Positions 7,848-45,536 of a stretch of DNA of 64,000 bases are shown in pieces; the stretch's first letter is position 1, and each line of letters opens with the position of its first letter. The position numbers were made by a program, and so were the translations under genes. The stretch is taken from positions 1-64,000 of IMG/VR virus record IMGVR_UViG_3300033148_006239, one strand, 5' to 3'. The DNA is from a virus. A model generated the notes under the pieces. The model had not been told where the DNA came from, searched no databases, and saw only the letters and a list, made by a program, of their open reading frames with translations.

Positions 7848-8248
7848 ATCACGACATTTATATTTCTGGACCTTTTAAAGATCCAAATAATTTAAAACTT
7901 GTAACAGAAATTAATAATCTTTGTGAATCAAATGGATTTAAAACTTTTCATACATTAAAAGATGGAATTGTTTTAGATGAAGATTCAGATAATGATAAAA
8001 TACGTGAAGCTATTAGATTGGGTATAGATGCTACATTACACGCAAAGATTTTTATAGCAATAGGACTAGATCCAGGTGTCATGTTTGAATTAGGATTAGC
8101 ATGGCGCTATGGAAAAAGAATTATATATTTCTCAAAAAATAAACCAAACAAAGTTATTTCAGCAATATCTAATTATGTAATAGAAAAAGATTTTGGTGAA
8201 CTAAATGTAGCTTTACAGATTCTTGGAGTAGATTATGACAGAAATTAA
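7844..8248 (+). CDS. Nucleoside 2-deoxyribosyltransferase / nucleotide N-hydrolase family
   Basis: IYISGPF and DPGVMFELGLA motifs. Confidence 0.75.
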   Translation: MNHDIYISGPFKDPNNLKLVTEINNLCESNGFKTFHTLKDGIVLDEDSDNDKIREAIRLGIDATLHAKIFIAIGLDPGVMFELGLAWRYGKRIIYFSKNKPNKVISAISNYVIEKDFGELNVALQILGVDYDRN

Positions 8249-9521
8249 AACAATTCTTGAAGAAATTGCATCTGAATCTAGTACAAATAAAAAAGTAGAA
8301 ATTTTACAATCTTATAAAGATAATAAAAAATTACAATCATATCTAAAAATGACTCTCGATCCTATGATTAATTTTAATGTAACTAAAAAATCGTTCAAAG
8401 ATAGATTTGAAATCTGGATTAATGATAGTGAATCTAATAATATTAATTGGTTTGAACTCAAAAAATATGTTTTAGATAAATTATGTTCAAGAGAAGTTAC
8501 TGGTCATAAAGCGTTACAATTATTTATTGATCATTATGTTGGAAATGAAATTGTTCTTAATATTATCTTCGATATGTTCCAAAAAAAAGTATGGAAAGCA
8601 AATATCTCTATTCAATTAATTAATCGTGTTTGGCCCGATGTTATTGATAAATTTCAAGTTCAATTAGCACAAAAATATTCTAAAGCTGAATTACCTTTTG
8701 ATATTACTTATGCATCCAGAAAACTTGATGGTACAAGAGCATTAATATTTATTTATGAAAATTCAATAAAAATCTTTTCAAGAAATGGAAAAGAAATACA
8801 CACCTTAGAATCATTCAAAAAAGATTTACTTAAACATATACAAGAATCTCATTATTCACGTATTATTCCATGTGTCATTGATGGTGAATTGTGTGTTGTT
8901 GATGAAAATAATAATGAAAGTTTTCAATCTATCATAAAACAATTACGTAGAAAAGATTATGATATAAAAAATGCAACATTTTATGTATTTGATTGGCTAT
9001 TAGTAGACGAATTCTATGAAAATATAAAATCTCCACAATTCAGTTATAGACTAAATGCTTTAAACTATTTTTGTAATACAATTGATTATGACAAAGTCAA
9101 AGCATTAAAACAGATCGTAGTCAAAAGAGAAAGCCATTTACAAAGATTAATTGAATCTGCATCAGAAAGAAATTGGGAAGGAATAATGCTTAAAAATGGT
9201 GAAAGTATTTATAAAGGAAAAAGAACTAAAAATCTGCTAAAAGTAAAGAAAATGAGTGATAACGAATATACAGTCACAAGATTAGAAGAAGGGTCTGCAA
9301 AATATATTGGAAGATTAGGTGCGGCAATAATTATACATAAAGATAATGAAGTTCATGTAGGTAGTGGCTGGTCTGATTCAGAAAGAGATTACTATTGGAA
9401 AAATAAAAATGAATTAATCGGAAAGAAAATTACAGTTCAATACTTTGAAGAAACTAAAAATCAACTAGGAAAATATTCCCTTAGATTTCCAGTCTTTAAA
9501 GGAGTAAGAGATTATGAATAA
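8235..9521 (+). CDS. ATP-dependent DNA ligase
   Basis: KLDGTR, IDGEL, YVFD, WEGIMLK, LLKVK, SLRFPVF motifs. Confidence 0.95.
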   Translation: MTEIKTILEEIASESSTNKKVEILQSYKDNKKLQSYLKMTLDPMINFNVTKKSFKDRFEIWINDSESNNINWFELKKYVLDKLCSREVTGHKALQLFIDHYVGNEIVLNIIFDMFQKKVWKANISIQLINRVWPDVIDKFQVQLAQKYSKAELPFDITYASRKLDGTRALIFIYENSIKIFSRNGKEIHTLESFKKDLLKHIQESHYSRIIPCVIDGELCVVDENNNESFQSIIKQLRRKDYDIKNATFYVFDWLLVDEFYENIKSPQFSYRLNALNYFCNTIDYDKVKALKQIVVKRESHLQRLIESASERNWEGIMLKNGESIYKGKRTKNLLKVKKMSDNEYTVTRLEEGSAKYIGRLGAAIIIHKDNEVHVGSGWSDSERDYYWKNKNELIGKKITVQYFEETKNQLGKYSLRFPVFKGVRDYE

Positions 9522-35316: not shown

Positions 35317-38300
35317 TTATTTTTTTATTAGTCTTGTTTTATAATTATTATCTAATAAAAGAGAATAATTACCATTATATTCATTAACATTAACTCTTGA
35401 AATATAGAATCCATTTTTCTTGAAAATATCATCAAGTGCAGACCATAACGAAGAAAAAATTGTTAAATCATATTGATTACCATTAAACAATTCAATCTTT
35501 ACAAAAGCCATTTGATTTCCACGTTTATCATTTGTTTTTCTAATTTCAATAACTCTATATAAAACAATATATTTATCATCAGTTTCTTCTAATATTATTT
35601 CATCTGTTAAGTCATACTTTTTACTTATTTTATTATACTTATCTTCACCCAAAAACGCAATAAATGGATTACTAAAATTATAACCAAATAATCTACTTTC
35701 AGTCTCAATTAAATTATCTTGACCATAATGTTCAAAGATTTTTAATTTATGTCTTCTTTGCTCTGTTATAATTTTGTTATCAGGTAATCCCTCTTCGTTA
35801 TACTTATTAATATAATAATCAAAAACTTTTATATTTTCTTTTTGTTTTTTAGTTGCTTTACTTTTTCTCATTCCCCATAATAAATAAGCACCATATATCT
35901 CTTTATAAGTATAACCAAAAGAATCAAAAAGCCCTGCTTCGATCATTATTTCAATGATCTTAATAGTAACTCTTCTCCAACTAATTTTACTATCCATATT
36001 AAAAAAATCATTAATTGTATTATAAGGTCTATTTGTATTTAATTCAAAAGCAGCCTTATCACCTATACCTTTTACATTCTCAAAGCCAAATATAATTGAC
36101 TTATCAATAATAGAAAAATTAGAGTGAGATTTTGTTAGATCTGGTTTTGATATTGAAAACTTATTATTATATTTAAGAAACTCATTAATAATTGTTTTAA
36201 AGTCTTCAAATTTAGAATTAATTAAAACCGCACAATAAAATTCTAAAGTCTTATAACACTTTAACCATGCCGATTGAAAAGCTACCATAGCATAACTAAC
36301 AGAATGTGCTCTATTAAATCCATATAAAGAAAACTTTTGCATAAAGTCCCAAATTATTTTAGACTTCTTTTTATCAATATCATGTTCTTCAAAACCTTTA
36401 AAAACAACTTTCTTCATATTATCTAAGTTTTCAAAATGCTTACGATAATCATCAGGTTTTATTTGTTTCATCCTTGCCAAAGAACGTGCATCATATTTAC
36501 CTAATATTTTTCTTAATTTATCTGTTTCCTCAAGAGATAATCCACCTATTACATTGGCTATCTCCATAACTTGCTCTTGGTATATTAAAACACCAAATGT
36601 TTTTTCAAGAACAGGCTTTAATTTTTCATGTGGATATTCGATATCCTTAGGATTATTGTAATTATTTATAAAAGTATCAACAACACCACCATATATTGGG
36701 CCCGGTCTATATAAAGCATTTATTGCAGCAATATCTTCAAATTTATCAGGAAGCATTTGTTGAATTACTTTTCTAATTCCATGTCCTTCAAATTGAAATA
36801 CTGCAACCATAAAATCTTTCCAAAAGATTTTTTTATAAACTTTAATATCATTAATATCAACAATATCAGGATGTATTTTCAAATAATATTTTCTATAAAT
36901 CTTTTTATCACCATTTGAAATTAACTTTAAAACATCATCAATAATTCTTAAAGTCTTTAGTCCTAAAATATCGTATTTGACATGACCTATTGCCGTTAAT
37001 CCTCTTGCATATCCTCCCTCTTGAGGACTTAATTGTAATTGCATTAAATCACCACGGGGTGCGTATGTTGCACAAGTTTCATATATATTTGGATAAACAA
37101 TAATTCCAGACGCATGCTTACCTATATGTTTAATTTTACCTGTTAGCTTCTTCATTGTTATTGCTAATTCTTCATTTTCAGGTTTTTCAATAAACTCTCT
37201 AAACGAATCGCAACATTCAATCGCATCAGCAAAATAAATATTATGTTTATCATCTCTAGTATTTTCTTCTTTTTTAATCCAAACATCAAAAGCAGTTTTA
37301 ACATCTTTAGCAATACTATTTACAAGTCCAATATCTATATTATATATTCTACAAACATCTCTAAAAACACCTTTAAATTGAAATGTTCCATAATTAGATA
37401 CTAAAGCGACTGATGTATTTACAATTTCACCATCTTCATTTTTCTTATTAAAATATTCAAACATAAAATCTTTAACAAAATTATTATCACTGAAATCAAT
37501 ATCAATATCAGGTAATTCATTTCTACCAGGATTTAAAAATCTTTCAAAATATAACCCAAATCTTATTGGATCTATTTGAGTTATTCCCAAGCAATACGAA
37601 ACTAGACACCCTGCCGCACTGCCCCTCCCAACTCCAACAAGTATTCCACGTTTCTTAACTTGCTTAACTAAATCAAAAACAGATAAAAAATAATCATATA
37701 TTTTTTTATCTTTTATGACAATTAATTCATATTCTAATTGTTTTTTATATCTTTCTTCATCATAATCTTTAATCGATTTAGATCTTTTTTCAAGTCCAAT
37801 AAATGATTGTTTCTTTAAAAAATTAAATCTTTCATCTTCATCTTTGTCTTCAAATCCAACAGGAACAATTAATTTATTTGTACAATCATATTCGATATCT
37901 TTAATCTTTTCAAATATTTCAACTGTATTATCACATAATTCATTTAAAACATTATCACTATTATCAGAACCATATTGCTCACTTGAATTAAATACTTCAG
38001 ATCTTGATTTTATATAAAGTTGTTTAGCATCAAATTCCCATAATAATTCAGATGATTTTTTATCTTTATCTGATATATCACCAGTTGTTTTCTTAATACC
38101 TGATTGTAAATACAAAAGATTTCTGTGTGTTATATAATCTTCTTTATCAACATAATGTGAATCAACTGTAATAATTGGTTTTATATCAAATTTTTTAGCA
38201 AACTTTAATAATCTTTTATTAGATTTATTTTGATCAGCTATTTCATTAAATTGAAGTTCTATATAGAAATCATCACCGAATAACTTTTTATAACGTTTAA

Positions 38301-38775
38301 CAAATTTAATTGCATCTTCTTTATTATTGTTCAAACAATGTTGTTGTAATTCACCCGCAATACAAGCAGTTGAAACAATTACATTTCCTACAAGTTCATC
38401 TCTAAATGATTTTATTAATTCCCAATCTATTCTTGGTCTTGAATAAAAATACTTATGTGATTCATAAAGTAATTTAAACAACATTCTTAATCCATCGTAA
38501 TTCTTAGCAAGCATCAATAAATGATTTCTCTTTTCATTTTTAATTCTTGTGTTCTTGTCTTTAGTAACATAAAACTCAATACCATAAATAGGTCTTATAT
38601 CTTTATCTTTACAAAAAGAATGCATTTCAGACCATGCACACATATTACCGTGATCAGTTATAGCTATTCCTTTTTGTTTCAAATCGATAGCTTTTTGTAT
38701 TATTTGATCAGGGCTATTTAATCCATCTCTAAATGAAAAATGCGAATGTGTATGCAAATGAATAAAATCTTTCAT
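35317..38775 (-). CDS. dnaE: DNA polymerase III alpha subunit (family C)
   Basis: PHP HLHTHSHFS/TDHG, GRGSAAG, PDIDIDF, KYDILGL, YGFNRAHS. Confidence 0.97.
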   Translation of the reverse strand: MKDFIHLHTHSHFSFRDGLNSPDQIIQKAIDLKQKGIAITDHGNMCAWSEMHSFCKDKDIRPIYGIEFYVTKDKNTRIKNEKRNHLLMLAKNYDGLRMLFKLLYESHKYFYSRPRIDWELIKSFRDELVGNVIVSTACIAGELQQHCLNNNKEDAIKFVKRYKKLFGDDFYIELQFNEIADQNKSNKRLLKFAKKFDIKPIITVDSHYVDKEDYITHRNLLYLQSGIKKTTGDISDKDKKSSELLWEFDAKQLYIKSRSEVFNSSEQYGSDNSDNVLNELCDNTVEIFEKIKDIEYDCTNKLIVPVGFEDKDEDERFNFLKKQSFIGLEKRSKSIKDYDEERYKKQLEYELIVIKDKKIYDYFLSVFDLVKQVKKRGILVGVGRGSAAGCLVSYCLGITQIDPIRFGLYFERFLNPGRNELPDIDIDFSDNNFVKDFMFEYFNKKNEDGEIVNTSVALVSNYGTFQFKGVFRDVCRIYNIDIGLVNSIAKDVKTAFDVWIKKEENTRDDKHNIYFADAIECCDSFREFIEKPENEELAITMKKLTGKIKHIGKHASGIIVYPNIYETCATYAPRGDLMQLQLSPQEGGYARGLTAIGHVKYDILGLKTLRIIDDVLKLISNGDKKIYRKYYLKIHPDIVDINDIKVYKKIFWKDFMVAVFQFEGHGIRKVIQQMLPDKFEDIAAINALYRPGPIYGGVVDTFINNYNNPKDIEYPHEKLKPVLEKTFGVLIYQEQVMEIANVIGGLSLEETDKLRKILGKYDARSLARMKQIKPDDYRKHFENLDNMKKVVFKGFEEHDIDKKKSKIIWDFMQKFSLYGFNRAHSVSYAMVAFQSAWLKCYKTLEFYCAVLINSKFEDFKTIINEFLKYNNKFSISKPDLTKSHSNFSIIDKSIIFGFENVKGIGDKAAFELNTNRPYNTINDFFNMDSKISWRRVTIKIIEIMIEAGLFDSFGYTYKEIYGAYLLWGMRKSKATKKQKENIKVFDYYINKYNEEGLPDNKIITEQRRHKLKIFEHYGQDNLIETESRLFGYNFSNPFIAFLGEDKYNKISKKYDLTDEIILEETDDKYIVLYRVIEIRKTNDKRGNQMAFVKIELFNGNQYDLTIFSSLWSALDDIFKKNGFYISRVNVNEYNGNYSLLLDNNYKTRLIKK

Positions 38776-38776
38776 A

Positions 38777-39001
38777 TTAATTTAAATCTCTTGTTATAAC
38801 GTCTGCTTTAAACTCGTTTTGACTAATTGTATAATGAATATCAATTACAACACAATTCTTTAATCTATGCTCTTTGATAAATTTTTCATTTAAAAAATAA
38901 TCAAGAGATTTATTTAATTCCCAATTATAATTGGCATGAATTGTAACAATAAATTGTTTCTCTAGTTGATTATCTTTTATTCTAAATAAATTAGTTTTCA
39001 T
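38777..39001 (-). CDS. Hypothetical protein
   Basis: Start moved to avoid overlap. Confidence 0.55.
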   Translation of the reverse strand: MKTNLFRIKDNQLEKQFIVTIHANYNWELNKSLDYFLNEKFIKEHRLKNCVVIDIHYTISQNEFKADVITRDLN

Positions 39002-39002
39002 A

Positions 39003-39794
39003 TTAATTTCTTTCCCAGACACTAGGTCTATTATTCCAAAATCCTGTTTTAATAGGACTATATCCATAATCTTTCAATATAAAACTAAATAACTTTGATA
39101 AAGATCTCCTTGAATATAATTTTCCTTCATATATTGTTTCATTAAAATGTCCTGTTTGTACAATATTAAATCCATTTGCAACTACAAATATTCTTGGATT
39201 ACATTGTACTATAATAGACTCTAAATGATCGATTGTATTTTCTATATGTTCAAAATATTCACTACAAAAAGCAATGTCACATTCAGATAATTTACTATAA
39301 TTATGTTCTATTTTTATATTGTCATTTTTTCTTGCAACAAATCTAGCTATTTTATATTGCTTTGATTGTTTTAAATTTGTACCAATAATATTTGCCTCTG
39401 AATAAGCTTCAGACAATGCACATGTTGTAAATCCTATACCACATCCAAAGTCTATAACTGTTTCTATATCCTCATAATTTAATGTTGCTAATCTTTTAAC
39501 ATAATTTTTAGAATCAAAAAGCCATCCATATAAAGCTATTGCTAAATAATATGATCCATCATATACTGAATAATCAGGTATTGCTAATTTCAAAGATCGA
39601 TACCAACGATTTATATATTTAAATCTTGACTCAAATGGATCAAAATTATTTCCTTCTTTAATTTCATCTATTGCAAGTTCTTCATTTTTATTAATTTCCT
39701 CTTCTGTAATATCATTAAATAATCCCATTATAATTTTTTTAAAATATTTTTTTGTAATTTTTTGATTTGAATTTAAAAAATTAATATCGTGCAT
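39003..39794 (-). CDS. Class I SAM-dependent methyltransferase
   Basis: VIDFGCGIG motif I; CSEYFEHI; no DPPY/PCQ DNA-MTase motif seen. Confidence 0.8.
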   Translation of the reverse strand: MHDINFLNSNQKITKKYFKKIIMGLFNDITEEEINKNEELAIDEIKEGNNFDPFESRFKYINRWYRSLKLAIPDYSVYDGSYYLAIALYGWLFDSKNYVKRLATLNYEDIETVIDFGCGIGFTTCALSEAYSEANIIGTNLKQSKQYKIARFVARKNDNIKIEHNYSKLSECDIAFCSEYFEHIENTIDHLESIIVQCNPRIFVVANGFNIVQTGHFNETIYEGKLYSRRSLSKLFSFILKDYGYSPIKTGFWNNRPSVWERN

Positions 39795-40784
39795 TTATTC
39801 ATCCATAAATAATGATTTTTCATAATCTGATAATCTATTAAAACTATCTCTATCTGAACTAAAATTGATCCAATCATTTGGGTCATTTATTGGTAATCCT
39901 AATTGATCTTCTAAAGTCTTTTTATCAGTACAGCTTTGATTAAAAGTTGAATAATCTGTACCTGAAGAATGTCTACCGCATGATGAAAATAAACATCCAA
40001 AAGCATTACTTAAATGATCATCTTTTGAATAAGTACATTTTTTTGATCTATCACATCCAGGTCTTAACGTATCTGCAATCAAACTTAATCCTAACTTTTC
40101 GATTTTATATCTAATCAACCAATGTAATCCAACAATAAATTCTTCTTCACAAAATTGCATTCTTCTATTACACTGACCCATCAATGCTAATAAATTTTGT
40201 GTAAAATGATAAGGATGATGATAACTCATAGGTAATACAGATCTAGCTGCTTGCCATGTACCTTGATCTTCTTTAACTATCATTTCATAAATATCTTTCA
40301 TTTGTTTAAAATGTTCGATAATAATATCTCTTAATTGTGCATCTTCTTCAAATAATTCTTTATAATATGTATATAAAATAATTGATGCATCTAATTTATT
40401 ATTGTCTCTACAACCGCTTGACCCAAACCCAGTTCCTATTCTTGCTCTTGCGTGTTGATCAAAACAATGTCGTGGTAAACCTGTAACTTTAAAAGTAAAC
40501 GTAACTGATTCTAAAGCTGTTGGTAATGTATTACCAGTCAAAGCAGATAATACAACAAAATATCTATTCAATGGATCTAATTCATTCCATTTATTAATAT
40601 AATCATCATTACCCCATGTTGCAGTAGCTATTGCAAAAATTGATTTATATGGATTTTCATTATAATCAATTATTTCAACATCAAGTTTTTCACACCCAAA
40701 ATATATATATGTCTCTTTTACAGGTCTTTCAGATGGCAATGTTCCCATTGCTTCTCTTAATTCATTAATTCTTTCATTTGTCAT
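39795..40784 (-). CDS. Divergent ThyX-like flavin-dependent enzyme
   Basis: LESVTFTFKVTGLPRHCFDQHARARIG...SSGCR, QAARSVLP, RRMQ; RHR replaced by RAR. Confidence 0.7.
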   Translation of the reverse strand: MTNERINELREAMGTLPSERPVKETYIYFGCEKLDVEIIDYNENPYKSIFAIATATWGNDDYINKWNELDPLNRYFVVLSALTGNTLPTALESVTFTFKVTGLPRHCFDQHARARIGTGFGSSGCRDNNKLDASIILYTYYKELFEEDAQLRDIIIEHFKQMKDIYEMIVKEDQGTWQAARSVLPMSYHHPYHFTQNLLALMGQCNRRMQFCEEEFIVGLHWLIRYKIEKLGLSLIADTLRPGCDRSKKCTYSKDDHLSNAFGCLFSSCGRHSSGTDYSTFNQSCTDKKTLEDQLGLPINDPNDWINFSSDRDSFNRLSDYEKSLFMDE

Positions 40785-40786
40785 AT

Positions 40787-41761
40787 TTACTCCTTCATAC
40801 TTTCCCAAATTTTATCTATTATATCTGCATAATTTTGATATTCTATAGAGTATTCATCATAAATTCCTTCAAACATTTCTTCTAGATAATCCATATCACA
40901 TATATGATCACCTAAATAATCTCCAGTATCATGTATATTAATACTATTATTCCAACCGTATGTACATTTTATATAATCAACTATATCTTCAAATTTAACA
41001 GGCACACCTTTGGCTAAATTAATACTTTTATGAATATACTTTTTTGTTATTAACAAATTTTTAGTATATTCATATTCAGTAAATGCATATATATCTAATA
41101 TAATTGACAATAACTTTGAAAAATCATCGATATAAAAATAATCTTTATATTTATTATATTCTAAATAGATATCAAGTTTCTCTTTTTTATGAAAACGAAT
41201 ATGTCTTAGTATTAAATTTATCATACTTGAATTATCGTAAGGATAATCACCACATACAAAAACAGGTCTAACATTAAACCAATCAATATCTTTATTTATA
41301 AATAAAATATCTTCAGCTGCTTTTTTAGTTATACCATATAACGAAGGATGATTTTCAAATGGTTTAGCGTTATTGCAAAATCCACCAATAGAAGTATCAA
41401 ATTCAAATGGATCAAATATAGTTGTGCTACTAAAATTGATTAAAGGTAAATCGAACTCTCTACATATTTTAATAATATTCTGTGTCCCTAAAACGTTTGT
41501 TAAAATAGTTTCTTCTTCATTGTTTATACATCTATGTGTTCCTACAACTGCGGCTATATGTATAATAGCATCAGGTTTCCAATCATTAATTGCATTTCTC
41601 ATTTGAGTATAATCTTTAACATTAAAATGAAATCTTTCTGTATCTAATCCGTCATTATAAGTTGGATAAATATCTGGCATAATATCATATTTATGACTTA
41701 ATTGTTTATCTAAGCCACGTGCAATCATTCCATTATGACCTGTTAAAAATAATTTATACAT
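40787..41761 (-). CDS. NAD-dependent NDP-sugar epimerase/dehydratase (extended SDR)
   Basis: TGHNGMIA, IIHIAA, TNVLGT, FSST, YGITK. Confidence 0.9.
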   Translation of the reverse strand: MYKLFLTGHNGMIARGLDKQLSHKYDIMPDIYPTYNDGLDTERFHFNVKDYTQMRNAINDWKPDAIIHIAAVVGTHRCINNEEETILTNVLGTQNIIKICREFDLPLINFSSTTIFDPFEFDTSIGGFCNNAKPFENHPSLYGITKKAAEDILFINKDIDWFNVRPVFVCGDYPYDNSSMINLILRHIRFHKKEKLDIYLEYNKYKDYFYIDDFSKLLSIILDIYAFTEYEYTKNLLITKKYIHKSINLAKGVPVKFEDIVDYIKCTYGWNNSINIHDTGDYLGDHICDMDYLEEMFEGIYDEYSIEYQNYADIIDKIWESMKE

Positions 41762-41771
41762 TTATTTTACC

Positions 41772-42278
41772 TCAATCATCGTCGGGATATGCACCTCTAG
41801 AATACCAAGAATCATCATCAAGATCATTATTGATAACATCATTCATATCATCGCAAATCTCCATAAAATTTTGTAATTTATTAACACAAGCGTCAATATT
41901 ATTTGCCGATGTATTTATTTCAATAAAATTCGCCTTTAGTTTATTGACAATATCAATGAAAATTGTTTGTTGATAAAATAGACTGCGTCTTGAAATAGTA
42001 TGACACTTCATTTCATCAGTAGATTCAATTCTCTCAAGAAAATCATTCGCATTTACTATACATAAAACTATTACAGAATGTTTACAAATATCTTTACTTA
42101 TTTTATATAAAATATCATTATCATGTTCTCTTTTATAAACTTTATTATATACTAATTGTGAAAGAATACTTCTGTCGTGACAAACATATTGATAATTATT
42201 TTGTAATTCAAAATTACGTCTCAATGTTGATTTACCTGACTTATCAATACCTTCAAAGAATATTAATTTACTCATCAA
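41772..42278 (-). CDS. Thymidylate-kinase-family dNMP kinase
   Basis: FEGIDKSGKST, HDRSILSQLVY. Confidence 0.85.
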   Translation of the reverse strand: MMSKLIFFEGIDKSGKSTLRRNFELQNNYQYVCHDRSILSQLVYNKVYKREHDNDILYKISKDICKHSVIVLCIVNANDFLERIESTDEMKCHTISRRSLFYQQTIFIDIVNKLKANFIEINTSANNIDACVNKLQNFMEICDDMNDVINNDLDDDSWYSRGAYPDDD

Positions 42279-42486
42279 TACCTGCTTTTGTTACTGTAAA
42301 ATCTAATTTAATTTTTTCAATTATTTTTTTTGGTTTAATATAAATATCAACATAATTATCATTATAATTATCGTTATCGTTTAAATCAAATTCAAAATCA
42401 TCAATAATATCTTCATCTTTTAAGTCTTGCAAAAGCAATAATATTTTAATTTGAAATATAAAAAAATCAATATTAAATTTACTCAT
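42268..42486 (-). CDS. 72-aa protein resembling a tail-sheath C-terminal segment
   Basis: IIDDFEF...YVDIYIKPKKIIEKIKLDFTVTK. Confidence 0.5.
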   Translation of the reverse strand: MSKFNIDFFIFQIKILLLLQDLKDEDIIDDFEFDLNDNDNYNDNYVDIYIKPKKIIEKIKLDFTVTKAGIDE

Positions 42487-43057
42487 TAGTGTATGCCTTA
42501 TAAAGAGTATCTAATATATGTTTATAATCATCTACACTCATTCCACCATAAGATAAAACATAATTAGGATGATTTATTGGAAAAACAATTGCTTCTCTAT
42601 CATTATATTCAAATATAGATTCTTTATATAATTCTGCATCAAAAAATTTAGCAACTTGTTTACCTAAAGGAACGATTACTTTTGGTTTTAAAATCTGTAT
42701 TTCTTTTAATAGAAATCTATTACCACATTTATTAATTAATCTTTCATCAATCTTATTATTTTTTGTACTGCATTTAACAATATTTGTTATTGTACATTCA
42801 TTTAAATAATTGATCATTCTTAAAAATTCTAATCCAAAACCTCCATCAAAAGCAAACGTACCATATATCCCTCTAACATTTGATGGATTCATACCAACAA
42901 ATAAGAAATTATTTCCTATATGTAATCCTTTTAATTTACCAAACCCATATCTTATATCTTCTGTATTAAATTCTTCATCGCATAAATTTTTACATCGTTT
43001 ACATGTGCATAATCCGTAATAAAGTTTGTGAATCTTACTTTTCATATTTACTTTCAT
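42479..43057 (-). CDS. Uracil-DNA glycosylase superfamily protein (family 4-like)
   Basis: CKRCKNLC, FVGMNPS, TNIVKC, IVPLG, NHPNY. Confidence 0.85.
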   Translation of the reverse strand: MKVNMKSKIHKLYYGLCTCKRCKNLCDEEFNTEDIRYGFGKLKGLHIGNNFLFVGMNPSNVRGIYGTFAFDGGFGLEFLRMINYLNECTITNIVKCSTKNNKIDERLINKCGNRFLLKEIQILKPKVIVPLGKQVAKFFDAELYKESIFEYNDREAIVFPINHPNYVLSYGGMSVDDYKHILDTLYKAYTNE

Positions 43058-44031
43058 AAATTACTCATTATAGTATCAAAAGTAAAAAATGGAATAATAG
43101 TATCAATCTTTTTAATTCTTTCAATATACATATTGTTATAAGGTGTTATTTTCAAATAAACATCTACAGGCATTGATTTTGCAATCTTAATTGCATTATC
43201 TGCATCGTCTTCGACAACAAAAGATACATTTTTTAAATCTTTAATTATTCTATGCTCTTTCTTTTCATCCCAAAAAATCATATCAATAGGTAAATTATTA
43301 CTTGTTATCCATTTTAAAGTATCAGAATAGATTCTACTATATTTATGATATGGTCGTGCAGTTATTAATACAGTTATATAATCTTTTTTATATAAATATT
43401 GTAAAAATTCCTTTGCTCCAGGAACAAAATCCATTTCGGCTTTAACACCTGATTGTCTATATCTATCTTTTAATATTAATTGTACTTCTAAATCAAGATT
43501 TAAAAAATCATTAAAATCAATTATTTTTTCATTAATAGAAACATTATCTAACATACCATAATTAGACATAATATTCGAATATTCATTAATCCATTTAATA
43601 AAAAAATCAGGCCAATCAGCAATAACTCCATCAATGTCAATAACTGCAATCTTTTTATTTGAATCGATATTGTTTATAAATTTTTCTTGATTATACCTTG
43701 CTTCAACAACAGTTGTTTTATTTAAAAAATTCTTATAAAAATCTTCATCATTAATTCCCCACAAATTACACAACCCAACAAGAAACTTAAATATATCAAT
43801 CAATTCTTCAGAAATATTTGATCTAATTATATCGCCATCAAATTTTCTATGCATTTTAAATGGCATTTCATGTAATAATTCACCTATTTCAGAATAAAGA
43901 TGTAAACAAAATTCCTTAGACCAAAAAACTAACTCTTCTTCAGTTAAATTATTTATATCAAATCCTTTATCTTTAAAAACTTGATTATTAAAGTCAAGTT
44001 GTTTTTCCCAAATTTCTTTTAATTTATTCAT
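43054..44031 (-). CDS. Fusion of all-alpha dUTPase/dCTPase-like domain and HAD 5'-nucleotidase
   Basis: SEIGELL...EELIDIFKF; DIDGVIAD, ITARP, VEDD. Confidence 0.8.
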   Translation of the reverse strand: MNKLKEIWEKQLDFNNQVFKDKGFDINNLTEEELVFWSKEFCLHLYSEIGELLHEMPFKMHRKFDGDIIRSNISEELIDIFKFLVGLCNLWGINDEDFYKNFLNKTTVVEARYNQEKFINNIDSNKKIAVIDIDGVIADWPDFFIKWINEYSNIMSNYGMLDNVSINEKIIDFNDFLNLDLEVQLILKDRYRQSGVKAEMDFVPGAKEFLQYLYKKDYITVLITARPYHKYSRIYSDTLKWITSNNLPIDMIFWDEKKEHRIIKDLKNVSFVVEDDADNAIKIAKSMPVDVYLKITPYNNMYIERIKKIDTIIPFFTFDTIMSNL

Positions 44032-44989
44032 TTCCCCACCCATAAGCCATAACGTGATCAACAAAATCTTTTAACTTATCACACAATGTGTGAAACTGTA
44101 TAGAATGATCCCATGACGCATATCTACCAAAACATTTTATATCACCAATATGATCTAAACAATGATTCTCTAAAAAATAGCCATACTTTAACGTACCATA
44201 TTGTAATATACCACTAGACATAAAAATCTTTTTAAGTATACAGACATTATCTCGATCAATTGATTCATACGTAATTGTTTTATCTTTATTATCTGTAACT
44301 CTTATAAAAGGAATATCTTTATCAGCATAATATATATAATCATAATCGTTAAACATCAAACCATTTATTTTAACAAAATATTTGCTTTTATATTCATATT
44401 TAAAATAAGGATTTACATCAAATAATTTACAAAAATCAGGAGCAGGAATTGTATTAATAATATATTCATGACTAGTTCTAATTGAATAATTATTATCTAA
44501 ATGAATTGCAACGTGATTGTTATCATAATAGTCAACACGTTCAATTAAACTGTTATAATATGTAGTACCTTGAGACCACAAAAATCTACAAATTGTTTCA
44601 ATAAATTCTTTCTGTGAAAAATCAAAATATTCAAAATTATTACCTCCCGACGCGGTACTATCATAGTGTTTTCCATCTCGTGTAATTCTTGAATACTCTA
44701 ATAAAAATTCTTTTGTTGCATAATCTTTAATTTCATCATTGTAACAGAAACCAATGTTTGTCTTTTTAACATTTTGCTTGATATTAAATTGTCTTAAAAT
44801 CTTTTCTACTTCATCAGAAACATGTAAATATCTCGGACCAAAAGCGTTCTCATATTGACCATATAATTTTCCAATTATAGTTACATTACAATTGAGATAT
44901 TGTTTTAAATAATAAGCCGTTAATAGTGCTGCAGGACCAGCACCAATAATAATTATATCATTCATAATTAATTTCTTATCAATGGGCAT
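44024..44989 (-). CDS. FAD-dependent oxidoreductase (UDP-galactopyranose-mutase/HemY-like fold)
   Basis: IIIGAGPAAL, GPRYLH, INTIP, RVT, FGRYASW. Confidence 0.7.
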   Translation of the reverse strand: MPIDKKLIMNDIIIIGAGPAALLTAYYLKQYLNCNVTIIGKLYGQYENAFGPRYLHVSDEVEKILRQFNIKQNVKKTNIGFCYNDEIKDYATKEFLLEYSRITRDGKHYDSTASGGNNFEYFDFSQKEFIETICRFLWSQGTTYYNSLIERVDYYDNNHVAIHLDNNYSIRTSHEYIINTIPAPDFCKLFDVNPYFKYEYKSKYFVKINGLMFNDYDYIYYADKDIPFIRVTDNKDKTITYESIDRDNVCILKKIFMSSGILQYGTLKYGYFLENHCLDHIGDIKCFGRYASWDHSIQFHTLCDKLKDFVDHVMAYGWGNE

Positions 44990-45536
44990 AATTAATTTGC
45001 CTCATTACGTTATTAGTTTTTACAAATAAACAAGGTTGTACATCATCATAATCAATAAAATAATTTCTTATACATTTCCTAACGTTTTCAAATTCATTAG
45101 TAATTGATGAAATACATTTACTTTTAATATTTGCAATTTCAGTAGCGCTAAATCCCTTTAAATAAAGTTCAATAATTTCTTTTGCCTTTACTCTATCTAA
45201 ATTATTTAACATTCTTTCAAAATCAATTGTAACATCTGCATCAGGTTCATCATAAGCAATTTGATCTTGATAATTATCTAAATTGGCGTTCTTATATTTA
45301 TAATTTCTATAAGCGTTGTCCATAATTTTAAATGAACTAAAACTCAATGTTTGATTTATAAAACCAGATAAACTACCCTTTTCTTCATCAAAGTTATTGA
45401 TATACTTTAATAATAATATTGATAATTCCTGCTTCGCGTCGTCAAACTCAACTGGAGATTTATGTGAAACTTTATATGCATATTTACATATCAGTCTATC
45501 ATAATCTCTAAATACTTGGTTAATGTCAATAATCAT
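44979..45536 (-). CDS. Phage sigma-70-family factor (regions 2 and 4)
   Basis: DDAKQE..ILLL..INNFDEEKGSLSGFI; GFSATEIA HTH. Confidence 0.8.
   Translation of the reverse strand: MIIDINQVFRDYDRLICKYAYKVSHKSPVEFDDAKQELSILLLKYINNFDEEKGSLSGFINQTLSFSSFKIMDNAYRNYKYKNANLDNYQDQIAYDEPDADVTIDFERMLNNLDRVKAKEIIELYLKGFSATEIANIKSKCISSITNEFENVRKCIRNYFIDYDDVQPCLFVKTNNVMRQINYAH

Follow-up and report, generated by a model that had tools for sequence, protein, structure and literature searches.

To our knowledge, the pyrimidine replacements and hypermodifications described in phage DNA start from enzymes of the ThyA fold. In the pathway of SPO1, SP8, phi-e, and PhiW-14, a dUMP hydroxymethylase works alongside a dTTPase-dUTPase, a dTMP nucleotidase, a dCMP deaminase, and an hmdUMP kinase. 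More generally, the activities of thymine-replacing phages comprise a C-to-U deaminase, a dUTPase, a thymidylate synthase (TS) homolog, a kinase, and a nucleotidase or dTTPase (PMC5977210, PMC13697223). Here, we analyzed positions 1 to 64,000 (the window) of the IMG/VR virus record IMGVR_UViG_3300033148_006239, in which seven enzyme genes lie between a sigma factor gene and dnaE. They encode a flavoprotein, a dUTPase-like/HAD fusion protein (the fusion), a uracil-DNA glycosylase (UDG)-like protein, a thymidylate-kinase (Tmk)-like deoxynucleoside monophosphate (dNMP) kinase, an extended short-chain dehydrogenase/reductase (SDR), a divergent ThyX-like protein, and a class I S-adenosylmethionine (SAM) methyltransferase. 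Comparison with related viral loci supports the cluster as a conserved, phage-only functional module that is more than a chance grouping. From the domain identities and synteny that we observed, we infer, at about even chances, that the substrates and products of the module are such that it places a 5-substituted uracil in the phage DNA for some or all of the thymine, pre-replicatively, in the manner of SPO1 and SP-15 with a ThyX-based enzyme.

The likeness to the SPO1 type lies in both the parts and their position. As predicted from their domains, dUMP would be the substrate of a TS-superfamily enzyme, which is accompanied by a pyrophosphatase, a nucleotidase, a kinase, and, in relatives, a deaminase; the genes likewise sit among replication genes, and a UDG-like domain is tied to the polymerase. 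What differs here is that the C5 enzyme has the ThyX fold and not the ThyA fold, that the pyrophosphatase and nucleotidase are fused, and that a flavoprotein with the predicted fold of UDP-galactopyranose mutase (UGM) is an apparently obligatory partner. A further parallel is the UDG-PolA of SP15-like and SPO1-like phages, in which a UDG is also coupled to a replicative polymerase, together with a dUTPase, a C-to-U deaminase, and a TS homolog (Missoury et al., NAR 2026, PMC13697223). When fused to phage PolA, UDG domains remove uracil from the template before it is copied; these fusions mark T-modified genomes, and every T-modified phage with UDG-polymerase coupling has a TS homolog as well as a dUTPase and a dCTP deaminase (PMC13697223). 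However, the UDG-like unit of the present module is free, N-terminal on DnaE, or C-terminal on PolA, whereas theirs is N-terminal to a large PolA, and its motif A reads G[MQL]NPS, in contrast to LLVGE in the UDG-PolA phages.

Phage SP-15, whose DNA contains 5-dihydroxypentyluracil with sugars (Kropinski et al. 2018, PMC5977210), encodes a divergent Thy1 protein, gp130, for which the role of hydroxymethyl-dUMP synthase has been put forward as a proposal only (PMC5977210). As at our locus, the divergent Thy1 gene is translationally coupled to, and overlaps, an SDR gene (gp129); SP-15 also has a second, canonical ThyX elsewhere in its genome and a deoxyribosyltransferase-like gene near gp130. In contrast, its SDR is of the classical short type, glycosyltransferases are present, and there is no flavoprotein homolog. 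We considered gp130 as a member of the ThyX-like family and rejected it, as hhalign gave a probability of 2% and searches gave no match; only the Thy1 fold is common to the two. Phages RB69, DLP3, and RL38JI carry glycosylated 5-hydroxycytosine, and their TS homolog uses flavin for nonmethylating C5 chemistry (Lee et al., NAR 2026, PMC13326640). They have in common with the module a TS-superfamily C5 enzyme, a dNMP kinase, a HAD phosphatase, and phage nucleoside diphosphate (NDP)-sugar enzymes (UGM in Pootjesviridae), but their C5 enzyme is a ThyA-fold protein acting on dCMP, and the sugar is added on DNA by recognizable glycosyltransferases. Compared with the ThyA-based hmU, hmC, and 5-hydroxy-C pathways as a whole, the module lacks known DNA-level transferases in the scans that we ran. 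Known thymidine hypermodification clusters follow a combinatorial pattern (PMC8989533), which the variable tailoring genes inside the module mirror. In the Pbunaviruses F8 and 14-1, the modified thymidine fits a tetrose sugar alcohol (F8) or a cyclized aldopentose (14-1) (Yee et al. 2025, PMC12191111); this mark replaces about a quarter of T, at TG sites, and no gene has been tied to it (PMC12191111).

The ThyX-like protein and its family

The ThyX-like protein scored 46.7 bits against Pfam Thy1 (cut-off, 24.8), and a single-sequence search with it matched no solved ThyX. An AlphaFold (AF2) model built from 101 homologs reached a predicted local distance difference test score (pLDDT) of 92.8 and a predicted TM score (pTM) of 0.91. 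When this model was submitted to Foldseek, all of the top matches listed were ThyX or the UMP/dUMP methylase PolB, with E values down to 7e-10, target-normalized TM scores of 0.62 to 0.73, and identities of 15 to 21%. Given this model, we are confident that the protein is predicted to have the ThyX fold. The ThyX signature RHRx7-8SxRY is absent from the window protein, which reads RARIGTGFGSSGCRD, and over the 101 members of the family the signature RAR...G.RD[NS] is fixed in place of RHR...S.RY, so that Ala stands for the His, Gly for the Ser, and Asn or Asp for the Tyr. A first-pass annotation of the window, made from the sequence alone, had called this protein a divergent ThyX-like enzyme; the Thy1 match and the fold agree with that description, and the signature His, Ser, and Tyr are lost.

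When mapped onto Thermotoga maritima ThyX by a weak profile alignment (E 0.02) combined with family alignments, the protein keeps E58, Q75, R78, R80, R90, R147, N163, and R174 and is changed at H79 (to A), S88 (to G), Y91 (to N), R165 (to L), N169 (to G), and H178 (to C). The window residues for the dUMP-binding arginines R78, R80, R90, R147, and R174 are R121, which is nearly invariant, and R123, R134, R189, and R216, which are invariant. At the FAD-contacting positions, the equivalents of H79, R165, N169, and H178 are replaced family-wide and E58 and N163 are retained. The family has also gained invariant or near-invariant residues at D117, D135, D140, H198, and E221, as well as a C-terminal extension of ~100 aa with four conserved cysteines (C252, C258, C277, and C293). 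Canonical ThyX and PolB thus have the fold and the nucleotide-binding arginines in common with the ThyX-like protein but differ from it in their intact RHR...S.RY and in lacking the four-Cys extension; a canonical copy co-occurs in a quarter of the records. Several ThyX-like homologs contain inteins (P0128, P0136, P0145, P0155, P0159, P0132, and L046:10001-11446), some with homing-endonuclease domains. Their two insertion points fall at conserved motifs, the first within or close to the region of RAR...G.RD and the second close to the R216 motif; such placement of inteins usually marks functionally critical sites.

Recurrence of the module and its partner proteins

With the ThyX-like protein as a single query, IMG/VR gave no match, and an alignment-based scan was needed. 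It yielded 54 independent viral contigs, which were compared by tblastn and all-against-all clustering of open reading frames (ORFs) and whose ThyX-like proteins are 32 to 56% identical to the window protein. The fusion, sometimes split into two genes, was present in 48 or 49 of the 54 loci. The flavoprotein was present in 42, and 7 more had, at that position, a short 250-aa variant sharing its N-terminal motifs. A UDG/polymerase cluster, counted where a locus had either a DnaE gene or a UDG-like domain (stand-alone or joined to DnaE or PolA), was found in 42 loci, the Tmk-like kinase cluster in 31, the SDR in 25, and a dCMP deaminase in 24. The module genes are nearly always co-directional, and where partners were missing, the ThyX-like gene lay near the end of the contig or of the fetched stretch. 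Conservation of the gene neighborhood had been named at first pass as a check on the cluster, and the set does recur co-directionally across these loci, with the ThyX-like gene as the signature gene of the module and the flavoprotein and the fusion as core members. The same annotation had the cluster feeding DnaE. The array does end at dnaE in this genome, and DnaE lies within 10 kb in 25 of the 54 loci; specificity for DnaE is not supported, as the module core is found with three replicative polymerases and adjoins PolB or PolA in other phages.

The module also has variable members. The methyltransferase family of the window occurs in only 2 loci (L043 and L046) and is a variable accessory gene. 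A second class I methyltransferase occupies a similar slot in 4 loci; a relationship between the two families was rejected, as they are unrelated beyond the SAM motif. In another locus, aldo-keto reductase and radical SAM/SPASM genes stand between the kinase and ThyX-like genes (L020:7563-9647), and radical SAM homologs were found in L026 and L028 too (3 loci in that cluster), which suggests a different tailoring chemistry in that phage group. In L040, a dCTP deaminase gene is wedged between the flavoprotein and fusion genes.

Relatives of the ThyX-like protein numbered 288 in one search, and its profile retrieved 82 representative clusters (50% identity) at E<=1e-30 among 1.8 billion proteins. 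Neither the ThyX-like protein nor the flavoprotein had a homolog in 50,697 deposited phage records, a DNA-level search of the same genomes with the region found nothing, and the fusion gave only partial HAD-domain matches there, in actinophages. Among 185,579 species genomes, the ThyX-like protein was found in one, on a 9.5-kb contig of a metagenome-assembled genome. We found no paper describing this ThyX-like family or module. We take the module to be new and to extend a known kind of base-modification system, with a smaller chance that it holds genuinely new flavin-mediated C-C chemistry.

Pfam sees only an N-terminal GxGxxG dinucleotide-binding motif in the flavoprotein, with no match to GLF (PF03275) at E<=0.01. 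Against the Protein Data Bank (PDB), a 27-sequence profile placed eukaryote-type UGM first (3.3e-8), in a match that covers the central and N-terminal parts only. The AF2 model (pLDDT 81) had Trypanosoma cruzi UGM as its top Foldseek match (6e-13), and VIA-align to UGM 4dsg gave a Z score of 20.4 over 307 aligned residues with a root mean square deviation of 3.6; VIA Z scores were 18.1 for protoporphyrinogen oxidase and 15 to 18 for further members of the amine-oxidase superfamily. The protein does not have the full three-domain UGM architecture, being 321 aa long (family, 277 to 343 aa) compared with 365 to 510 aa for UGMs, a shortfall of 100 to 190 residues, and its nearest Atlas clusters are 95 to 100% viral. 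By profile and model, the flavoprotein is a virus-only family of putative enzymes with a predicted UGM/amine-oxidase superfamily fold. Thioredoxin reductase and ferredoxin-NADP reductase were dropped as identities because both profile and fold favor this superfamily.

The N-terminal domain of the fusion, an all-alpha NTP pyrophosphatase of the MazG-like kind, scored 34.4 bits against dUTPase_2 (cut-off, 22.9), and the acidic metal-binding helices ExxE...EExxD are present in the window protein. The family profile matched dimeric dUTPases in the PDB (2cje at 2.7e-5 and 1w2y; the enzymes matched are those of Leishmania major, Campylobacter jejuni, and a trypanosome) and the putative deoxyribonucleotidase 3bwv (1.8e-4). 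For the C-terminal domain, the NT5C match of 24.4 bits falls just below the cut-off of 24.8, and PHROG matches include HADs of the PNK and heptose-phosphatase types; the HAD DxD motif (D143 and D145) is invariant in 31 fusion sequences, and IDIDGVIAD resembles NT5C. Homologs suggest that the true start is probably the ATG near 44031. In L003, L007, L009, and L010, the metal-binding motifs of the fusion are degenerate (N..D and DA..D for E..E and EE..D), the HAD motifs are intact, and canonical ThyX is present. That the pyrophosphatase domain is inactive whenever canonical ThyX is present was ruled out, as L020 and L026 have an intact motif and canonical ThyX.

In the PDB, the UDG-like protein matched the family-4 UDGs 1ui0 (1e-9) and 4zbx and the phage PolA-UDG 9qhs (4e-4). 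It retains the motif B His-Pro and the Asn of NxxKC, and across the phage family its motif A is G[MQL]NPS, not the GE[AG]PG of family 4; this motif resembles those of the SMUG/MUG type. The family is fused to the N terminus of DnaE in at least 12 loci (L003, L007, L008, L009, L010, L012, L015, L016, L021, L024, L025, and L046), giving proteins of 1116 to 1407 aa; it stands at the C terminus of a PolA of 799 aa in L035:10920-13319 and is free in PolB phages. We found no mention of UDG-DnaE fusions in the papers that we consulted. The UDG-like protein, a putative glycosylase by its motifs, belongs with the replicative polymerase, and by analogy with the UDG-PolA phages, its coupling to three polymerase families is a strong contextual argument that thymine may be what is modified.

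The kinase has a P-loop of the Tmk type (FEGIDKSGKST) and had no close relative among deposited phages, where one unannotated match was its only hit. In the SDR, TGxxGxxA and YxxxK are invariant (T7, G8, Y142, and K146) and the catalytic Thr, T112, is nearly so; its profile aligned over the full length with Pal (6bwl, 4e-33), RmlD (1vl0), RmlB, and GalE in the range of 4e-33 to 1e-28. The SDR is predicted to be a catalytically intact extended SDR of the NDP-sugar epimerase/dehydratase/reductase type. For the methyltransferase, only Methyltransf_11 reaches the Pfam cut-off, there is no informative PDB relative, and Pfam gave no match to the DNA methylase families.

We also asked what else a sugar pathway would leave in this genome. 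The first-pass annotation recognized no glycosyltransferase in the window, and this holds: Pfam found no such domain in the scanned ORFs of the window or of the rest of the genome, nor did six-frame GT2/GT4 searches, though many ORFs have no Pfam match and a divergent DNA glycosyltransferase could have escaped. As module partners, glycosyltransferases were rejected, since GT2/GT4 genes are confined to some of the large relatives and lie at a great distance from the module there. A sugar-1-phosphate nucleotidylyltransferase to start a sugar pathway was likewise not found in Pfam scans of the ORFs of this genome. The window also holds an ORF resembling nucleoside 2-deoxyribosyltransferases and dNMP N-hydrolases, directly upstream of an ATP-dependent DNA ligase gene (Table 1). 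It was ruled out as a conserved part of the module, being present in 2 or 3 of 20 related genomes.

The gene array in its genome

The source genome is a single contig of 105,324 bp with direct terminal repeats, 100% complete, with a G+C content of ~26%; the window is its first 64 kb. All seven enzyme genes (39003-44989) are on the minus strand, in an array that is unbroken over 35.3 to 45.5 kb and in which adjacent genes overlap or are separated by no more than 10 nt (Table 1). No terminator-like site was found on the minus strand from 35.0 to 47.5 kb, and a promoter scan of this AT-rich DNA was uninformative, with fewer matches than in shuffled sequence. Our analysis reproduced the coordinates and the tight packing between sigma and dnaE that were given at first pass, and every domain assignment made then was recovered. 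The sigma factor gene overlaps the flavoprotein gene by 11 nt and is not kept beside the module in related loci; no conserved counterpart of the 72-aa ORF was seen in those loci.

Table 1. Genes of the array and other features named in the text (window coordinates unless marked otherwise)
Feature	Position	Strand	Match or remark
Phage sigma factor	44979-45536	-	Sigma70_r2 2e-5, phrog_351/1740; upstream end of array
Flavoprotein, 321 aa, FAD-type	44024-44989	-	predicted UGM/amine-oxidase superfamily fold
dUTPase-like/HAD fusion	43054-44064	-	dUTPase_2 3.5e-8 + NT5C 3e-5
UDG-like protein, stand-alone	42479-43057	-	UDG superfamily 7e-13
72-aa ORF, overlaps both neighbors	42268-42486	-	only a chance-level, sub-threshold Pfam match
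Thymidylate-kinase-like dNMP kinase, 168 aa	41772-42278	-	Thymidylate_kin 8.9e-8, phrog_761
Extended SDR	40787-41761	-	Epimerase 3e-21, RmlD_sub_bind 8e-13
ThyX-like protein, 337 aa	39795-40808	-	Thy1 4.2e-12
Class I SAM methyltransferase, small-molecule type	39003-39794	-	Methyltransf_12/23/25/11, 6e-5 to 4e-4
96-aa ORF between methyltransferase gene and dnaE	38777-39067	-	no Pfam or PHROG match
DnaE-type replicative polymerase	35317-38775	-	PHP, pol III alpha, finger, HhH; Pfam 9e-55, 1e-44, 1e-39, 2e-13
Tubulin/FtsZ-family GTPase, 378 aa	45608-46744	-	1.7e-9
Class II ribonucleotide reductase, 1499 aa	20715-25214	-	intein with HNH endonuclease domain
Nucleoside 2-deoxyribosyltransferase/dNMP N-hydrolase-like ORF, 134 aa	7844-8248	+	Nuc_deoxyrib_tr 2.6e-7, above cut-off
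ATP-dependent DNA ligase	8235-9521
GmrSD_C/DUF1524-type nuclease domain protein, 224 aa	genome 97358-98032 (L056:15358-16032)	-	8.6e-7
Lar-like restriction-alleviation ORF	L056:17544-18107

The surroundings of the array form a replication and recombination module, with genes for a tubulin-like protein, primase, flap nuclease, DnaB, and a DnaA-like ATPase; further neighbors encode RecA, SbcCD, a DHH phosphoesterase, and the intein-containing class II ribonucleotide reductase. The tubulin/FtsZ-family gene is directly upstream of the sigma factor gene and has a homolog in one related locus only, L032. The remaining genome codes for myovirus-type structural proteins. Toward the genome end, near an unusual control region, lie two further genes, one for a protein with a GmrSD_C/DUF1524-type nuclease domain and, near it, the Lar-like ORF. 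Nuclease domains of the former kind are characteristic of type IV restriction enzymes, whose targets are modified DNA.

A candidate ThyX-based route and its alternatives

The module can be arranged into a pathway in which the dUTPase-like domain of the fusion, whose identity we observed, would convert dUTP to dUMP, with dCMP deaminase or dCTP deaminase adding to the dUMP supply in relatives. The ThyX-fold enzyme would bind dUMP via its retained arginines, and reduced flavin and methylene-tetrahydrofolate would add a carbon at C5. It may then release 5-hydroxymethyl-dUMP or another 5-substituted dUMP without the final reduction, because an enzyme without the signature His, Ser, and Tyr would not complete thymidylate. 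The Tmk-like kinase would make the diphosphate and host NDP kinase the triphosphate, which phage DnaE would incorporate, while the HAD 5'-nucleotidase domain would drain competing dTMP. By analogy with the experimentally studied UDG-PolA fusions, the UDG-like protein would clear stray uracil alongside the polymerase. More speculatively, the flavoprotein, the SDR, and the variable genes (here the methyltransferase; in other phages, radical SAM and aldo-keto reductase) might build or finish the side chain. The choice of dUMP as the substrate follows from the retained arginines (the R174 equivalent reads uracil O4), the dUTPase-like domain, and the two dUMP-producing deaminases. The first-pass annotation had appealed to the enzyme logic of base-replacing phages, and its elements, a TS homolog, a kinase, and a remover of the canonical nucleotide, are indeed in place, with deaminases in relatives. 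The ThyX-based base-modification route that it proposed is supported in part. The conserved phage-only module and the noncanonical ThyX stand; a sugar-derived or reduced side chain is conjectural, although the SP-15 and Pbunavirus parallels keep it in view, and so is any action on the base by the flavoprotein, the SDR, or the methyltransferase, whose family occurs in only 2 of the 54 loci.

Several points weigh against a 5-substituted uracil as the product. The phage is uncultured and the module is known from genes alone, and the residue map to T. maritima ThyX is a weak one. A dUTPase, a ThyX-type enzyme, a Tmk-type kinase, and deaminases are equally needed for plain dTTP synthesis and are common in phage replication modules, and in 6 of 10 complete genomes the ThyX-like gene is the sole candidate for a thymidylate synthase gene, as expected if it encodes their dTMP synthase. 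A nucleotidase would counter the ThyX-like step if it acted on dUMP. Finally, neither a glycosyltransferase nor the 5-hmdU DNA kinase (5-HMUDK) or aGPT-Pplase was detected in genome scans; for the latter two, this means no such domain in Pfam scans of the tested ORFs, with no dedicated profile search made.

The Pbunaviruses cut both ways. In 14-1, gp66 matches the flavoprotein profile as a remote homolog (hhalign 96.6%, 213 columns), and gp60 is a 305-aa ThyX-type protein with RTR for RHR, whose P-x-C-x5-C tail lines up with the first two of the four cysteines of the ThyX-like protein; both genes are upstream of the large polymerase gene on the same strand. Against a connection, gp60 is nearer to canonical ThyX (2e-16) than to the ThyX-like family (1e-11), the fusion and the SDR are not detectable in 14-1, and a mark at TG sites needs a DNA-level step. 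These similarities make a link of the module to the sugar-alcohol thymidines of Pbunavirus suggestive but weak. In a bolder version of the route, covalent flavin catalysis by the ThyX-fold enzyme together with the UGM-fold flavoprotein would join a carbon chain of sugar origin directly to dUMP at C5. The carrier would be an N5-flavin iminium, as it is in ThyX and in UGM chemistry; no glycosyltransferase would be required, the SDR and methyltransferase would reduce and trim the chain, and the products would be polyol-type thymidine analogs as in Pbunavirus, SP-15, and YerA41. We regard this version as improbable.

The alternative that survives best is ordinary thymidylate supply. The ThyX-like protein would be a divergent dTMP synthase, the dUTPase-like domain and the kinase would complete a path from dUTP through dUMP and dTMP to dTDP, the flavoprotein would be a reductase or activation partner, the UDG-like protein would be a normal replisome accessory, and the SDR and methyltransferase would be passengers. 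Every nucleotide enzyme of the module fits a dTTP pathway, the dUMP-binding arginines are kept, and eukaryotic-type UGMs, which bind NAD(P)H, are among the Foldseek matches of the flavoprotein (5vwt and 5vwu). In this genome, we found no ThyA, second Thy1 gene, or dCMP deaminase, and among the 10 genomes that are at least 90% complete, both kinds of synthase occur in 4 and only the ThyX-like gene occurs in 6, namely, this one and 5 others; these six keep the plain dTMP explanation alive. However, 12 of 46 records have a second, high-scoring Thy1 gene. A canonical ThyX with the full RHR...S.RY motif is encoded a few genes upstream of the ThyX-like gene in 9 loci and a ThyA-like gene is directly upstream of it in 4, and in these 13 loci another dTMP synthase would be redundant. 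A fused dNMP nucleotidase would be wasteful in thymidylate supply, and the flavoprotein, which is inherited together with the ThyX-like gene, is without a counterpart in organisms that use ThyX. Nor is the loss of the signature His, Ser, and Tyr and of several FAD-contacting residues, with new acidic residues and four Cys fixed in the family, what this explanation would lead one to expect. Because a canonical enzyme is repeatedly present alongside it, the signature has been rewritten across the whole family, and a flavoprotein is its apparently obligatory partner, we favor a distinct activity for the ThyX-like protein and regard plain thymidylate supply as less likely, though a serious rival.

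A second alternative is that the flavoprotein, SDR, and methyltransferase, perhaps joined by the ThyX-like protein, produce something other than a DNA base, such as a modified NDP-sugar or a small molecule resembling a nucleoside, for host takeover, antidefense, or glycan modification and that their position reflects co-expression only. This would suit an SDR that is firmly of the NDP-sugar class, a flavoprotein whose nearest fold is that of a sugar-nucleotide mutase, the involvement of ThyX-fold enzymes in nucleoside antibiotic biosynthesis (PolB, 4p5b, is among the Foldseek matches), and the failure of our searches to find a glycosyltransferase or DNA-level transferase. However, the flavoprotein gene adjoins the gene for the fusion and accompanies the ThyX-like gene in ~49 of the 54 loci whatever the polymerase type, the module is always among replication and dNTP genes, and the nucleotidylyltransferase that such a product would call for was not found in the genome scans. 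We therefore give a non-base product little credence. Least probable is a cytosine pathway of the T4/RB69 kind. Here, the pyrophosphatase domain would be a dCTPase, the ThyX-like enzyme would place a methyl, hydroxymethyl, or hydroxy group at C5 of dCMP, the kinase would phosphorylate the product, and the deaminases and canonical ThyX of relatives would serve dTMP synthesis. In its favor, a full T4-like list (dCTPase-type enzyme, TS homolog, dNMP kinase, dCMP deaminase, and separate TS) can be read in the loci with canonical ThyX, D117, D135, D140, and E221 could recognize the cytosine amino group like the Asp in ThyA-type dCMP enzymes (PMC13326640), and flavin-dependent TS homologs that make 5-hydroxy-dCMP are known (PMC13326640). 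Against it, the Arg equivalent to R174, the residue with which ThyX reads uracil O4, does not vary among 101 sequences, the pyrophosphatase domain best matches dimeric dUTPases, the module has taken in two different deaminases that yield dUMP, and UDG-polymerase coupling is documented for T-modified and not for C-modified phages (PMC13697223).

Should the module serve plain dTMP supply after all, it would still set apart a new subfamily of ThyX, marked by a tail of the metal-binding type and by a flavoprotein partner of its own. If, instead, it puts a 5-substituted uracil into DNA, phages would have a second way into modified DNA, independent of the first, through a ThyX-fold route with an apparently obligatory orphan flavoprotein; with 82 ThyX-like clusters in phages that use DnaE, PolA, or PolB, this route appears widespread. 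It would then also provide candidate genes for the thymidine derivatives of unexplained biosynthesis in Pbunavirus therapeutic phages, SP-15, and YerA41 and would bear on restriction and CRISPR evasion, on the sequencing of such phages, and on the enzymatic synthesis of modified nucleotides.

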